NCBI GenBank assembly: GCA_037200925.1
Contig: JBBCGO010000001.1
Coordinates: 317,248 to 381,247 of the forward strand
Length of the DNA stretch: 64,000 nt
From: Candidatus Doudnabacteria bacterium
Lineage (GTDB): Bacteria > Patescibacteriota > Doudnabacteria > UBA920 > O2-02-FULL-48-8
Direction: 5' to 3'
In this document: positions 45,377 to 49,733 of the stretch, one piece after another
Layout: each line of letters begins with the position of its first letter
Numbering within the stretch: position 1 is the stretch's first letter
Program-made: the position numbers and the translations under genes
Notes under the pieces: model-generated
What the model was told of the DNA's origin: nothing
Database searches by the model: none
What the model saw: the letters and a program-made list of their open reading frames with translations, nothing else

Positions 45377-46030
45377 TTAAAAACCCAGCGGCGCGTTGGG
45401 ACCCAGCAAAAATTTCAGGAAAAAAACCAGCGGCGGCAGAACTATGCTTTGCAAAACACCTGTATACAGCAATATGGCCAAAACCGCGAACAGCCAAATG
45501 CCAAACCGCTCCAAGGATAAAATAGCGTACATCCATGCTTCATTAAAATAACCTAAAATGCTCGCTAAAACTTTGGAACCGTCCAGAGGCGGAACCGGGA
45601 TGAGATTAAAAAAACAAAGCACTAAATTCAAGCTCACGGTTTCTATCAGCAGATCTTGCCCCATTGCGGAAATATTCGGCACCAGCCTGAAAACTGCGGC
45701 CGCCAAAATTGCCAGCAAAAAATTCGTAGCTACGCCCGCAATTGCGACCAAAAACATATCACGCTTAAGATTTTTGAAATTCCTGTAATCCACCGGCACC
45801 GGCTTGGCCGCACCGAACACGAACATACCGTGAGTGGCCCAAAACAAAAATAGAGGCAGTAAAATTGAGCCGAACGGATCTATGTGCGGTATGGGATTAA
45901 GGGTCAGCCGTCCTGCTTCACGCGCAGTCGGGTCCCCCAGTTTTTCCGCCACCAAACCATGCGCGACTTCATGAAAGATCACGGAGAACAGCAAGATCAA
46001 AATAAATATGATGATCGAGATCGGGTCCAT
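45377..46030 (-). CDS. M50-family (site-2 protease-like) membrane metalloprotease
   Basis: HEVAHGLVAEKLGDPTAREAGRLTLNPIPHIDPFG. Confidence 0.8.
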   Translation of the reverse strand: MDPISIIIFILILLFSVIFHEVAHGLVAEKLGDPTAREAGRLTLNPIPHIDPFGSILLPLFLFWATHGMFVFGAAKPVPVDYRNFKNLKRDMFLVAIAGVATNFLLAILAAAVFRLVPNISAMGQDLLIETVSLNLVLCFFNLIPVPPLDGSKVLASILGYFNEAWMYAILSLERFGIWLFAVLAILLYTGVLQSIVLPPLVFFLKFLLGPNAPLGF

Positions 46031-46346: not shown

Positions 46347-46733
46347 TTAGCTTAATTGCGAGGTGCAGTTCGGGCAGCGTGTGGCTTTCAGTGCTATCGG
46401 CGTGATACAGAACGGACATTCTTTCGTATTCGGGACGTCTTTAGGTACACGGCTCAAACGGTTGAACTGCTTGATCACCAAAAATACGGCAAATGCCACA
46501 ATGAAAAAATTTATAAGCGCATTCAGGAAAGATCCGAAAGCCAATGAATGGTGAAAAAATACCAATTTTAAATTGGCAAAATAAATATGCCCGGTGAATA
46601 TACTTATGATCGGATTGATGATATCGGTAACCAAAGAGTTGACCACTTGGCCAAAAGCCGCCCCGATCACTACGCCGACCGCCAGTTCTAAGGCGCTGCC
46701 TCTGATTGCGAATTCCTTAAATTCTTTCCACAT
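46347..46733 (-). CDS. mscL: large-conductance mechanosensitive channel MscL with C-terminal zinc ribbon
   Basis: MWKEFKEFAIRGSALELAVGVVIGAAFGQVVNSLV...; tail CPFCITPIALKATRCPNCTSQLS. Confidence 0.8.
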   Translation of the reverse strand: MWKEFKEFAIRGSALELAVGVVIGAAFGQVVNSLVTDIINPIISIFTGHIYFANLKLVFFHHSLAFGSFLNALINFFIVAFAVFLVIKQFNRLSRVPKDVPNTKECPFCITPIALKATRCPNCTSQLS

Positions 46734-46743
46734 ATACCCTATC

Positions 46744-47679
46744 TTACACTGTTCGGGCTTCGGCTTCAACCGCTTTTTTATCCGGCAGATTTTCGTTCAC
46801 AATTGTCAGTTTCGTGATCGCAAACAGCAAAATTGCCCCGCCATAAATTTGCATCCCAGATAAAGTAGCACCAAGGAATTTCCAGTTCACGATCACGGCC
46901 GCGAACGGAAAAGCCAGCTCGCAAAGCGTCGCTACTGAGGCTTTGGTTGAGCGCAGGCCGTAATAATAGATCATAAGCGAAATAAACCCTGCGACAATGG
47001 CGGTGATAAACACGAATCCCCAATCTTTTTTTGTGGTCAAGGCCAGCTCCGGCAAAGCATGATAATAAATTTCAAGAAAGAAAAGAAAAACCAAGGCTGA
47101 GAGAAACCGAAGCCCGGTCATAACTTGAAAACTGACTTTATTCAGCACAAACCTCCCGAACACGGTTGACCCGCCCCAGAAAAACGCGGCTCCCAAAGCC
47201 AGCAGCACTCCTAAGGTATTGGAGTTCCAGGTAAAACCCGTCGGCCGCAGGTCAGGAAATGAAATAATGTAGGCGCCAAAAATCGCCACAACGGCCCAAA
47301 GCCAAAAATTCTTGGACAAATTTTCTTTCAAGATCCAGGCGGCCAGACCGATCGCGATCAAGGGCTGGAGTTTTTGCAATAAAATCGCGACAGTAGGGTT
47401 CAAATAGTGGAAGCTTTGCGTAAACAAAACTGTGGCCAGGGCGGAACCGCCAAAACCGATGAAAATAACTGACAGCCATTCGCGCCATGTCAGATTTTTT
47501 AATTCATGCAAGCGAGGCAATAAGATCGCTATTGCCAGAACTGCGATCATGATGTGTTCCATCAAAACGATCGTGGTCGATGACAGCTGAGTCGTTAAAT
47601 ATTTGCGGAACGGCGCGTCCACTGCCCACAAAATCGCCGCAAAGGTCACGAACCAAGGCCCAAATTTGTCGTTTTTCAT
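46744..47679 (-). CDS. EamA/DMT-family transporter, putative riboflavin transporter (ImpX-like) under FMN riboswitch control
   Basis: 10-TM EamA-like protein. Start set to the ATG at 47679, immediately after the riboswitch terminator. Confidence 0.7.
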   Translation of the reverse strand: MKNDKFGPWFVTFAAILWAVDAPFRKYLTTQLSSTTIVLMEHIMIAVLAIAILLPRLHELKNLTWREWLSVIFIGFGGSALATVLFTQSFHYLNPTVAILLQKLQPLIAIGLAAWILKENLSKNFWLWAVVAIFGAYIISFPDLRPTGFTWNSNTLGVLLALGAAFFWGGSTVFGRFVLNKVSFQVMTGLRFLSALVFLFFLEIYYHALPELALTTKKDWGFVFITAIVAGFISLMIYYYGLRSTKASVATLCELAFPFAAVIVNWKFLGATLSGMQIYGGAILLFAITKLTIVNENLPDKKAVEAEARTV

Positions 47680-47705
47680 AAAAATAAAACCCTGTTCTTT
47701 CAGGG
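47680..47705 (-). terminator. riboswitch expression-platform terminator
   Basis: Minus strand: CCCUGAAAGAACAGGG followed by UUUUAUUUUUAUG (start codon). Confidence 0.6.
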
Positions 47706-47719
47706 CAAACGCAAAAAAC

Positions 47720-47850
47720 CTGCCTTCTTTCATCCGGACTTTACCGTCGCCTCTGGAATTGCACCAGATCAGCCCAGTTCCAGTTCTTCAAACTGGGGCT
47801 GGGGTCGCGGGGTTTACCGCCGGTGGGGACTTACACCCCGCCCTGAAGGA
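47720..47850 (-). promoter_or_regulatory. FMN riboswitch (RFN element)
   Basis: Minus strand: UCCUUCAGGGCGGGGUGUAAGUCCCCACCGGCGGUAAACCCCGCGACCC...GCAAUUCCAGAGGCGACGGUAAAGUCCGGAUGAAAGAAGG. Matches the RFN consensus GGGCAGGGUGAAAUUCCCGACCGGCGGUA...CCGACAGUGAAAGUCUGGAUGGGAGAAGG. Confidence 0.85.
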
Positions 47851-47852
47851 TA

Positions 47853-48212
47853 TTAATTGCTTGAATTATAACTTTTGAAAAACTCTCTTGCAAGCTGCTC
47901 ATCCTGCTTCATTTGTTCGATCAGCGCTTGTTCGGATTCAAATTTTTGATTCTCACGCAGTTTTTTTATTGTCTCTACCTCAATTTTTTGGTTATAAAGG
48001 TCATCTGAAAAATCTAAAATATAAATTTCCGCTTTTCGGTCAGTCTCGCCAAAGGTTTGAGCCGCACCAATAAAAACCAAAGCCGGTTTGCTGTTTGCCA
48101 GCCCGATATAAAGTCCGTCTGGCAGATCTTTCGGAACGTCAAGATTTGCCGTTGCAAATCCCAGATCTTTTCCGCGCCCTGCTCCTTTTTTTACAATTCC
48201 CGAAAACTTCAT
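47853..48212 (-). CDS. monofunctional riboflavin kinase
   Basis: GIVKKGAGRGKDLGFATANL, the riboflavin-kinase domain motif. Confidence 0.75.
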   Translation of the reverse strand: MKFSGIVKKGAGRGKDLGFATANLDVPKDLPDGLYIGLANSKPALVFIGAAQTFGETDRKAEIYILDFSDDLYNQKIEVETIKKLRENQKFESEQALIEQMKQDEQLAREFFKSYNSSN

Positions 48213-48625
48213 CTGCTCTTTTTTCTGATTATTGAGCTCTTAAATACCTCGGGTCGAAAGGGTTTGAGTCTTATTACTTTGGTCTTCAACCCTCGCTTCT
48301 GCAATTCTTTGGGCAGATTTCCAACAAAAGACCCTTGGTCATAACCAAGCGCAATTAAGTCAGGTTTTTCTTTTTTGATGTGCGGCCACGGGTCTTTGGT
48401 GCCGCCCAAAACGACTCTGTTTGCAAGCTTCAGTTGTTTGACATGCTGAGCGCGTTTTTTTTCGTCAAAAACAGGGGACTTCTCTTTGATTCTTTTCACA
48501 TTCAAATCTCTGGCAACGGAAACTATCAAAAACGTCCCCAATTTTTTTGCCTGCTTAATAAAACTAATATGCCCCGGATGCAGCAGATCAAAAACTCCGA
48601 ATACCATGACTTTCTTCATGACCAA
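48209..48625 (-). CDS. cytidylyltransferase-like FMN adenylyltransferase (RibL/TagD-like)
   Basis: VFGVFDLLHPGHISFIKQAKKLG (HxGH nucleotidyltransferase motif), DLIALGYDQ. Likely ATG at 48619. Overlaps the riboflavin kinase by 4 nt. Confidence 0.6.
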   Translation of the reverse strand: MVMKKVMVFGVFDLLHPGHISFIKQAKKLGTFLIVSVARDLNVKRIKEKSPVFDEKKRAQHVKQLKLANRVVLGGTKDPWPHIKKEKPDLIALGYDQGSFVGNLPKELQKRGLKTKVIRLKPFRPEVFKSSIIRKKSR

Positions 48626-48706: not shown

Positions 48707-48780
48707 CGGGGTGTAGTATACCGGTAGTACGCGCCCATGGGGTGGGTGTAGACCGGGTCCAATTCCCGGCACCCCGACCA
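48707..48780 (+). tRNA. tRNA-Pro (anticodon GGG)
   Basis: 7-bp acceptor stem CGGGGTG/CACCCCG plus A-CCA, U8, A14, anticodon loop AUGGGGU, T-arm CCGGG/CCCGG. Confidence 0.8.
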
Positions 48781-48812: not shown

Positions 48813-48992
48813 CTATAATAGACAAATATAAAAAAGAAGCCCGAAGATTGCTCTTCAGGCTATATGGTGGCACGAATTTCCGCGATTGTGCGGATAGGCG
48901 GACAAACTTTCTCCTGCTCATCGGCGCGGCGCTGCTGGGGTACTGGACGATCATCTGTTCGGCGAGTTTGCTCAGACATGGCTCTCTGTCCT

Positions 48993-49250
48993 TTATGTTG
49001 CGGAGCGGGCTGTGATCCGGAAGATTTTGACTAGTTCGTTGCGGCGTCCGTACCGGAAGCTTTGTTCCGTGTAGATACAAAGTTCCGGCGGAAAGCAAGT
49101 CGCATACACGCTTCTCTCCTCTGCCCGGATCAATGCCTCGTTCTCTGATACGGCAAGTTTGTACCCTGTATAGTCCCTTCCGAGACCGATTAGTTCGCGC
49201 ATGTCCTTCTCCGCGCTAGACGCCATGACCATAGCCCTTCGGGTGCTCAT
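48993..49250 (-). CDS. hypothetical protein (85 aa) in GC-rich segment next to tRNA-Pro
   Basis: GC-rich codon usage; overlaps 49216-49476 in another frame. Confidence 0.3.
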   Translation of the reverse strand: MSTRRAMVMASSAEKDMRELIGLGRDYTGYKLAVSENEALIRAEERSVYATCFPPELCIYTEQSFRYGRRNELVKIFRITARSAT

Positions 49251-49476
49251 CCGGTTTTCTGGTCAGCTGAGCCGAAAGAAAGACCTGTCCGGGTGCTCCC
49301 TGCAGCACTGCGGCTATCCTGTTCGCGGCGGCGCGCTGCGCTGCGAGAGTGCGAGTCAACGCCTGTTTACGGAACTCCGGCACTCTCGGATTGTTCAGGC
49401 GGGCCTGGATTCCGATGATATTGGCCTCGATCCGGGTATACCTGGCCATGACCGGACAATGCGGCATATCGTGCAT
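49216..49476 (-). CDS. hypothetical protein (86 aa) in GC-rich segment
   Basis: MHDMPHCPVMARYTRIEANIIGIQARLNNPRVPEFRKQ...; no recognisable domain. Confidence 0.3.
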   Translation of the reverse strand: MHDMPHCPVMARYTRIEANIIGIQARLNNPRVPEFRKQALTRTLAAQRAAANRIAAVLQGAPGQVFLSAQLTRKPDEHPKGYGHGV

Positions 49477-49733
49477 CTTATTCCCCCTTCACTTTCTGAA
49501 ATTTACGCCTCAATAAAAATCCGACCACTTGGTCGGTTCATTCTAGAATTAAGTTTTGCCTACAACTTACATTCTATGAACCGACATCAACCAAGACAAT
49601 ATTAAGAGCGGCCAAAAGGTTTTGGCTAACGGGCTTAATAAGGTTGCTGAACAAATGTCCGTTCATAGATTTATGCATAGAATATAGTAAATAAAATAAC
49701 TTGTCAAAAAAAGACCGAGAAAATTTCTCGATC

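Follow-up and report, generated by a model that had tools for sequence, protein, structure and literature searches.

An FMN riboswitch and a probable flavin salvage locus in a Candidatus Doudnabacteria bacterium

Introduction

Bacteria of the candidate phyla radiation (CPR), or Patescibacteria, are uncultured and genome-reduced, and their vitamin dependence on hosts has mostly been deduced from missing genes. In this study, we have analysed a stretch of 64,000 nucleotides from a Candidatus Doudnabacteria bacterium (contig JBBCGO010000001.1, positions 317,248 to 381,247), which we call the window. Our subject is a minus-strand locus in which a riboswitch for flavin mononucleotide (FMN) stands between the gene of a riboflavin kinase (flavokinase) and that of a permease belonging to the superfamily of drug/metabolite transporters (DMT), with the gene of a small nucleotidyltransferase resembling archaeal RibL further upstream. 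An earlier note, made by reading the DNA itself, had proposed that these genes form a riboflavin salvage module with an ImpX-like transporter. Using covariance models, protein profiles, structure prediction and a comparison of related loci, we describe the elements of the locus and weigh what they may do together.

Results

Gene order and the riboswitch aptamer

In the direction of transcription, the locus comprises the RibL-like gene, the flavokinase gene, the riboswitch with its expression platform, the permease gene and mscL (Table 1).

Table 1. Features of the locus, with positions in the window
Feature	Position	Strand	Basis
RibL-type FMN adenylyltransferase candidate, 136-138 aa	48209-48625	-	CTP_transf_like, HPGH motif
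Monofunctional riboflavin kinase, 119 aa, Flavokinase domain only	47853-48212	-	PF01687, 105 bits
Sigma-70-like promoter of the riboswitch transcript	47865-47893	-	TTGCAA (47893-47888), 17-nt spacer, TATAAT (47870-47865)
FMN riboswitch aptamer (RFN element, RF00050)	47718-47854	-	covariance model match
Proposed antiterminator 5' strand, UUCAGGGC	47840-47847	-	3' part of P1 5' strand plus J1/2
Intrinsic terminator (expression platform)	47680-47706	-	hairpin plus U-run, pattern scan and RNAfold
DMT permease, two EamA repeats, 311 aa, 10-helix	46744-47679	-	Pfam EamA, 136.8 bits in 2 stretches
mscL, large-conductance mechanosensitive channel	46347-46733	-	Pfam MscL, 117 bits

The RNA is an ordinary member of RF00050. 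When the window was scanned with this model, the match covered all of it (positions 1-138 of 138) at 105.6 bits (E 1.6e-23), above the Rfam gathering score of 66.2 bits, and the RFN element that had been placed by eye at 47720-47850 of the minus strand was recovered with almost the same ends. Among 14 aptamers lying upstream of orthologous permeases, 12 of the 24 predicted pairs in helices P1-P6 show double, compensatory changes. By its sequence, the aptamer is predicted to bind FMN. Its 5' end falls within the flavokinase stop codon (TAA, 47855-47853).

The promoter assigned to the riboswitch transcript matches the consensus at 10 of 12 positions in a pattern scan and is located in the last codons of the flavokinase gene, with transcription predicted to start at about 47858, some 4 nt 5' of the aptamer. 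Searching metagenomes with 23 aligned permeases gave 80 loci, which allowed this arrangement to be followed in relatives (loci outside the window are designated L001 and so on where one has to be singled out). A TATAAT, TACAAT or TATACT box lies 8-12 nt 5' of the aptamer in about 20 of 23 related loci, irrespective of whether that position is coding or intergenic; it is coding, within the last flavokinase codons (...S-Y-N-S-S-N-stop), in the window, L013, L027 and L076. No terminator was found between the flavokinase gene and the aptamer, so that transcripts reading through from the ribL-ribK pair would also end, conditionally, at the riboswitch terminator.

A separate observation concerns the riboswitch promoters that are intergenic. 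In these, the -10 box is central in a near-perfect palindrome of about 25 nt, for example GAGATTATTGTGATACAATAATCTC (L021, about 415-440; L048, about 1140-1165; L010, about 100-125; L079, about 2765-2790), and a conserved CCCCGCTTTCGCGGGG hairpin lies 5' of it; an operator or an RNA hairpin is possible. The palindrome is absent in the window, where the promoter is coding sequence.

Terminator and antiterminator

Eleven nucleotides after the 3' strand of P1, the leader can form a hairpin with a 6-bp stem, GCCCUG (47706-47701)-AAAGAA-CAGGGU (47694-47689), followed by UUUAUUUUU (47688-47680). This U-run directly abuts the start codon of the permease gene (ATG, 47679-47677), and sequence layout, pattern scan and RNAfold all agree with the proposal that a stem plus U-run terminator ends at the transporter start. 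The left arm of the hairpin belongs to GCCCUGAA (47706-47699), which is complementary to UUCAGGGC in the 5' part of the aptamer, and which thereby provides both the terminator left arm and the 3' strand of an antiterminator. The antiterminator duplex was calculated at -17.6 kcal/mol, as against -5.1 for P1 and -8.5 to -9.0 for the terminator (about -14 in total). Folded up to the U-run, the leader has the antiterminator form as its minimum free energy structure (-63.2); with longer flanks, the fold is that of aptamer plus terminator (-65.7). In these models the two folds are almost equal in energy, which is what one would expect of a switch tipped to termination by its ligand.

Both parts of the platform are kept in relatives. 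The motif (AU)GCCCUGAA-loop-AGGG(C/U) followed by a U-run lies 3' of the aptamer in about 20 of 23 related loci (18 by a stricter terminator script), and several loci keep it even though extra hairpins or 100-200 nt stand between it and either the aptamer or the start codon. Where the terminator could be located by script (20 of the 23 loci scanned), all but one locus, that is 19, carry an antiterminator complementarity of 7-11 nt. In L038 the two strands have changed together, with CUUCGGGGU in the aptamer and ACCCCGAAG in the terminator arm. The kept terminator and antiterminator and this compensatory double change support the transcription attenuation by FMN that had been proposed, and the element can be described, from its sequence and that of its relatives, as an FMN-OFF attenuator of what appears to be classical design. 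It would be expected to terminate transcription in vivo.

The permease: start codon, fold and lineage

The gene behind the terminator codes, as had been suggested, for an EamA/DMT-family permease with two EamA repeats (PF00892). Its longest open reading frame (ORF) starts at ATG 47733 and would give 329 aa; the public gene call (L001, 8480-9469) uses the same start. In the RNA, this ATG corresponds to the AUG within the conserved GGAUGAAAGAAGG at the 3' end of the aptamer, in the 3' strand of P1, and the 329-aa call runs through the terminator. We rejected it as the start: it lies inside the aptamer, and the 120 closest homologues, mostly of 300-312 aa, align from residue 1 of the protein that begins at 47679. 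Because homologue lengths and alignments begin there, ATG 47679 is the real start. The resulting 311-aa protein had no exact record in a public sequence look-up, since public gene calls use the 329-aa start.

No NCBIfam equivalog matched the permease at its cut-off. An AlphaFold2 model shows the 10-helix DMT fold (pLDDT 85, pTM 0.83), and the best Foldseek matches of this model are the choline importer LicB (7paf) and YddG (5i20), with TM-scores of 0.75-0.84 and E about 1e-7; SLC35 is among the fold matches too.

One part of the earlier note, the assignment of the permease to the family of ImpX, was not supported. According to the literature, impX led to the identification of mammalian RFVT3/SLC52A3 (PMC4897618), and ImpX has a distant homologue in RFT2 (PMC4418817). 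We compared the permease family with ImpX through human RFVT3, its relative according to this literature: the hhalign probability between the permease family profile and RFVT3 was 0.2%, which means no detectable similarity. The RFVT3 sequence used is identical to PDB 8xsn_A and has PF06237 as its only Pfam match, and neither of the RFVT structures 8xsn and 8xsm is among the 50 best Foldseek matches of the permease. By way of RFVT3 rather than an ImpX sequence, these comparisons argue indirectly that the permease is not of the ImpX lineage. In the literature searched, a Pfam or TCDB family for ImpX was not found, and only the relation to RFVT/SLC52 is stated. As a side observation, the ImpXRv primer has a chance exact 21-mer in L004 (JBOHJU010000135.1, 605-625), a GC-rich contig of a 'Methylocella sp.' metagenome-assembled genome that carries no permease; no exact match to this primer was found in the species representative of Fusobacterium nucleatum.

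Flavokinase and the RibL-type nucleotidyltransferase

The flavokinase matches PF01687 over profile positions 6-124 of 124 and has no FMNAT module. It aligns only to the C-terminal third (about 184-322) of the NCBIfam RibF models, all of them below cut-off, and this domain content bears out the description of the protein as a stand-alone riboflavin kinase. An identical flavokinase is encoded on NCBI contig JBBCBH010000057.1 of assembly GCA_037975565.1 (L001), and the RibL-like protein, too, has an identical record from a Candidatus Doudnabacteria bacterium (P0121).

Directly upstream, the TGA stop of the RibL-like gene overlaps the flavokinase ATG by 4 nt (ATGA). For the RibL-like gene, ATG 48619 (giving 136 aa, the length of NCBI's P0121) is a likelier start than TTG 48625. 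The protein matches PF01467 (62 bits, positions 2-132 of 133) with HPGH at residues 16-19, and the only models that it matched above threshold are generic (PF01467 and TIGR00125). With PF06574 it scored only 16 bits, below the cut-off of 27, and it is not of the RibF N-terminal type. Among the NCBIfam models, rfaE_dom_II came first (69 bits, cut-off 181.5), TagD gave 42 bits (cut-off 165), and the CoaD cut-off was not reached either. True archaeal RibLs give the same sub-threshold pattern, with rfaE domain II first and TagD far below its cut-off.

Direct comparison places the protein with RibL. A sequence of RibL from Methanocaldococcus jannaschii (MjRibL), used as bait only, retrieved real Methanocaldococcus and Methanococcus orthologues, and the window protein shares 43% identity over 129 aa with that of Methanocaldococcus sp. 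FS406-22 (P0243; E 4e-30). A hidden Markov model of 109 archaeal RibLs gave it 120.8 bits, against 57-61 bits for TagD/TarD; with the reciprocal CPR profile, archaeal RibLs scored 120-132 bits and TagD/TarD 56-58. Its best PDB match is archaeal (Thermoplasma 3glv, E 1.2e-27, full length), ahead of TarD (1e-10) and TagD (4e-9). Dozens of its homologues are named 'FAD synthetase' by JGI and some 'FAD synthase' by NCBI, FAD being flavin adenine dinucleotide. By identity and profile scores, the nearest characterised relative of the protein thus appears to be RibL, and not TagD, HldE or phosphopantetheine adenylyltransferase (PPAT). The earlier description, an HxGH nucleotidyltransferase of RibL or TagD type standing in for bifunctional RibF, is thereby supported on the RibL side, and profile scores and identity do not point to a glycerol-3-phosphate cytidylyltransferase. 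We accordingly rejected an assignment to TagD or to HldE domain II, whose models stay below threshold; on the RibL profile the window protein scores about twice as high as TagD/TarD. The predicted activity of the protein is FMN adenylyltransferase.

Conservation of the gene neighbourhood

At the gathering threshold of Rfam, an FMN aptamer lies directly 5' of the permease gene in 22 loci and is absent from 40 others; no hidden aptamer appeared in L007, L020, L025 or L044 even at E <= 0.1. FMN-like aptamers just below the threshold stand 5' of orthologous permeases in L011 (2846-2962, 62.5 bits), L031 (606-776, 54.5 bits) and L032 (1794-1936, 54.2 bits). With P1, J1/2 or P2 disrupted or altered, these may be decaying or variant riboswitches.

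To count neighbours, we used 37 non-redundant orthologues of at least 57% identity, after removal of near-duplicates and of loci with less than 450 nt of upstream sequence. An aptamer above the gathering score precedes the permease gene in 18 of them and a sub-threshold one in 3. A flavokinase gene lies upstream on the same strand in 29/37, often only 17-90 nt away where no riboswitch intervenes, and an aptamer (above or just below threshold), a flavokinase gene or both are found in 30/37. More than half (20/37) have a RibL-like gene upstream, most often immediately before the flavokinase gene. Beyond this set, the more distant permeases of L067 and L069 (40-44% identity) also have a riboswitch. 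As a conserved gene neighbourhood, the succession of import, FMN and FAD synthesis that had been claimed for the window is therefore supported.

Genes of riboflavin biosynthesis occur beside the permease in three loci. L048 (1191-3912), whose permease is 77% identical, reads FMN riboswitch-ribA (GTP cyclohydrolase II)-ribE-ribH-DMT permease, with neither ribB nor ribD in the locus; L077 (1564-3924) has RFK-ribE-ribH-permease and L037 (6-1176) ribH-permease. L048 shows that members of the clade can carry rib genes, and in the same operon as the permease. Within the 64-kb window, which represents about 7% of the genome, tblastn with RibA, RibE and RibH from L048 found no rib biosynthesis gene. 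On this coverage, and with a close relative that carries rib genes, the earlier note's suggestion of an organism lacking de novo riboflavin synthesis is not supported.

Other features around the locus

mscL begins 10 nt 3' of the permease stop codon, and a pattern scan found no terminator-like site between the end of the permease gene (46744) and mscL (46733). In several relatives, too, mscL lies 0-100 nt 3' of the permease gene. It may thus share the permease transcript and its FMN control, unless it is driven from a promoter-like site inside the unit, at 46997-46970. Further downstream, a protein of 217 aa (45377-46030, minus strand) is an M50-type intramembrane metalloprotease whose sole NCBIfam match is a model for a HExxH protease of daptide biosynthesis, at 37 bits against a cut-off of 300.

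Upstream of the RibL-like gene lies a gene for tRNA-Pro(GGG) on the plus strand (48707-48780), found by ARAGORN and not reported by Rfam RF00005 at the gathering threshold. At E <= 1, the same positions match the model of the small RNA (sRNA) SpF41 below threshold (40.5 against 52 bits), and in L011 a sub-threshold SpF41 match likewise overlaps a tRNA. Adjoining the 3' end of this tRNA gene is a GC-rich stretch at 48830-49480 (0.51-0.59, where the surroundings have 0.38-0.46). It contains a pair of small minus-strand ORFs that overlap (49476-49216 and 49250-48993), for which neither a Pfam match nor a counterpart in related loci was found, and closes with a strong terminator-like hairpin (48861-48838; RNA fold z-score -3.9, from 20 shuffles only). 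This stretch may be a strain-specific islet at the tRNA.

Next to it, an unannotated minus-strand unit (49512-49700) has a TTGACA-17-TATATT promoter, an imperfect hairpin of about 100 nt with arms ATGAACGGACAT and ATGTCGGTTCAT, and a terminator made of GAACCGACC...GGTCGG and a U-run. The hairpin is also a 30-aa ORF (49574-49666, MNGHLFSNLIKPVSQNLLAALNIVLVDVGS). The unit is kept in L011, L028 and L013, always 5' of the RibL-like gene; it shows a few compensatory pairs, and its reading frame is intact in all four. No Rfam family matched it. It is a candidate sRNA or small-protein gene.

Discussion

Taking together the aptamer, the terminator, the gene families, the affinity of the nucleotidyltransferase to RibL and the conserved synteny, we consider it likely that this is a flavin salvage locus, in which an FMN-OFF attenuator governs a riboflavin-importing permease and a flavokinase plus RibL-type pair makes FMN and FAD. 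In such a system, the promoter in the 3' end of the flavokinase gene would yield a transcript whose first 137 nt or so fold as an FMN aptamer. With FMN bound, P1 and J1/2 would be locked, the GCCCUG...CAGGGU hairpin would form with its U-run, and transcription would halt just 5' of the start codon. When FMN is lacking, the UUCAGGGC of the aptamer 5' part would pair with GCCCUGAA, the left arm of the terminator, and the antiterminator so formed would let RNA polymerase continue into the DMT/EamA permease gene and probably also into mscL. Upstream, the translationally coupled pair would convert riboflavin to FMN (the bacterial-type flavokinase) and FMN to FAD (the RibL-type nucleotidyltransferase). 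FMN would thereby feed back on the uptake of its own precursor.

The substrate and the direction of transport are predicted here from gene context. With 30 of the 37 orthologues linked to flavins and rib genes beside the permease in three loci, a riboflavin importer is the best reading, and we hold this function to be the most likely one. The comparative evidence supports a flavin as substrate, most simply riboflavin, and the OFF logic would fit an importer. The same comparative logic predicted RibU, RibM, RibN and ImpX before they were validated (PMC4418817).

Several points weigh against this picture. At the level of the permease, 7/37 orthologues lack both a riboswitch and any flavin gene within 3 kb, and 16/37 have no detectable aptamer, so that FMN control is not universal in the family. 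The ribA, ribE and ribH genes beside the permease in L048 are compatible with a substrate that is not riboflavin, or with a function in parallel to biosynthesis, and riboflavin transporter calls based on association have failed before, RfnT being a copper importer (PMC6362234). As for the switch, the terminator stem is short, with 5 Watson-Crick pairs and one G-U and about -9 kcal/mol. Regarding the two enzymes, the search for a promoter of the ribL-ribK pair gave none that was convincing, and the RibL-like protein, which contains no cysteine, lacks the two C-terminal cysteines conserved in archaeal RibL. An experimentally active Entamoeba enzyme is also cysteine-free (PMC11423594), and the cysteines are therefore dispensable for activity.

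The best of the alternatives, which we regard as unlikely while granting it some weight, leaves the riboswitch as described and has the permease move another flavin-related molecule (FMN, FAD, lumichrome, a pathway intermediate, or a toxic analogue, for example roseoflavin) or export flavin. DMT/EamA proteins are very often exporters, and the NCBIfam models nearest to the permease are YedA and YddG, both far below cut-off. In L048 the permease gene closes a ribA-ribE-ribH operon under riboswitch control, and in L077 and L037 it stands behind ribH; it was in this context that RfnT was miscalled a riboflavin importer (PMC6362234). Export, however, is at odds with the switch, since FMN-OFF control represses when flavin is plentiful, the opposite of what an exporter would need. 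Against another substrate stands the commonest neighbour, the flavokinase, which acts on riboflavin itself; moreover, no biosynthesis gene accompanies the permease in the window, and the known permeases under FMN riboswitches (RibN, RibM, RibU and ImpX) are importers (PMC4418817).

That control is mainly translational, the hairpin sequestering the only Shine-Dalgarno-like AGGG and the U-run being incidental in an AT-rich leader, seems to us improbable, more so than another substrate. The AGGG of the hairpin, 10 nt 5' of the ATG in the window, is indeed the only purine-rich stretch of this kind, and AGGG lies 9-11 nt 5' of the ATG in many loci. The weak stem noted above would also suit this alternative, as would L046 and L049, in which the hairpin is present and the U-run is poor. 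Yet at least 5 U follow the stem directly in 20 of the 23 loci scanned, and in L021, L063, L067 and L069 sequestration cannot work, with 100-200 nt and a separate ribosome-binding site between hairpin and ATG. The two mechanisms are not mutually exclusive, and, speculatively, translational masking may add to attenuation.

The least probable alternative, to which we give little credence, is that the HxGH protein is another small cytidylyl- or adenylyltransferase (TagD, heptose-1-phosphate adenylyltransferase or PPAT) and the FAD enzyme is encoded elsewhere: the generic models, the first place of rfaE domain II, the absence of a RibL-specific curated model from the libraries searched and the missing cysteines (PMC11423594) would allow it, but bona fide archaeal RibLs fail the same cut-offs, identity to the Methanocaldococcus protein extends over the full length, reciprocal profiles separate RibL from TagD/TarD at about twice the score (120-132 against 56-61 bits), and the gene overlaps the flavokinase start and recurs 5' of the permease.

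A wider proposal, which we put forward tentatively and at slightly less than even weight, is that the permease founds a separate, CPR-wide family of DMT riboflavin importers orthologous to neither RibN nor ImpX; that, together with a bacterial flavokinase and an archaeal RibL-type FAD synthase, it makes up the standard chimeric flavin pathway of many Patescibacteria; and that control by FMN riboswitches has been repeatedly gained, lost or left decaying within one clade. Our literature search found nothing relevant that links 'riboflavin kinase' or 'FMN riboswitch' with CPR/Patescibacteria. For such organisms, the locus offers a positive read-out, in which a ligand-specific RNA sensor and a conserved neighbourhood nominate a route of riboflavin uptake and its conversion to FMN and FAD, the latter by a candidate FAD synthase of archaeal type within a bacterium. 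In addition, it allows the correction of a public gene call that extends into the riboswitch. Every component is of a known kind, and the RibL-like proteins are already labelled FAD synthetase in databases; the understanding of riboswitches and of flavin metabolism is unchanged, and known parts are extended to a poorly studied phylum. The value of the locus is that of a coherent and testable flavin salvage module for CPR bacteria.

Among known riboswitches, the nearest counterparts are the ribD and ribU (ypaA) leaders of Bacillus subtilis and impX of Fusobacterium nucleatum, in which an RF00050 aptamer is likewise combined with a terminator/antiterminator platform. The window shares with known RFN switches the full six-helix aptamer, the OFF logic and a terminator left arm complementary to the conserved 5' CUUCAGGG, and it is proposed to control a flavin transporter gene, as is the case for ribU, ribM, ribN and impX (PMC4418817). 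It differs from them in its CPR host, in a promoter embedded where the flavokinase coding sequence ends, in an aptamer that overlaps the stop codon with no intergenic spacer, in a U-run that abuts the start codon, and in the regulated gene, which belongs to an uncharacterised DMT subfamily.

Like archaeal RibL (MJ1179 of Methanocaldococcus jannaschii; KEGG K14656), the RibL-like protein is a single-domain HxGH nucleotidyltransferase in a family of about 140-150 aa. Unlike it, the protein is bacterial, is without the two cysteines to which archaeal RibL owes its air sensitivity, and is paired with a bacterial/eukaryotic-type flavokinase that uses adenosine triphosphate (PF01687) rather than the archaeal RibK, which depends on cytidine triphosphate. 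The archaeal-type FAD synthase of Entamoeba histolytica (EhFADS) is a proven FAD synthase with 41% identity to MjRibL, close to the 43% between the window protein and the Methanocaldococcus orthologue, and both are cysteine-free; the pairing of a bacterial/eukaryotic-type flavokinase with an archaeal-type FAD synthase is also found in Entamoeba (PMC11423594). Compared with bifunctional RibF (FMNAT PF06574 plus flavokinase PF01687), the window would cover the same two reactions with a homologous flavokinase module, whereas the two activities lie on separate polypeptides and the adenylyltransferase is of another type.

With regard to transporters, ImpX (FN1498; Fusobacterium and Firmicutes) is a multi-transmembrane riboflavin importer encoded by a monocistronic gene under an FMN riboswitch (PMC4418817), and the window permease also stands behind an FMN riboswitch; all organisms in which ImpX was found are riboflavin prototrophs (PMC4418817, PMC6593275). 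Within the DMT family, the riboflavin importer that is known is RibN (Rhizobium leguminosarum, Ochrobactrum and Vibrio), a secondary permease of 296 aa described as a 'DMT family transporter' (PMC10012899), and its likeness to the window permease is at the level of the superfamily. RibN has an FMN riboswitch in some lineages (alpha-proteobacteria) and not in others (PMC4418817), the same patchiness that we see in the family of the window permease. RibN, in turn, is reported only from Proteobacteria (PMC4418817), whereas the CPR family is typically found in a ribL-ribK-permease neighbourhood.

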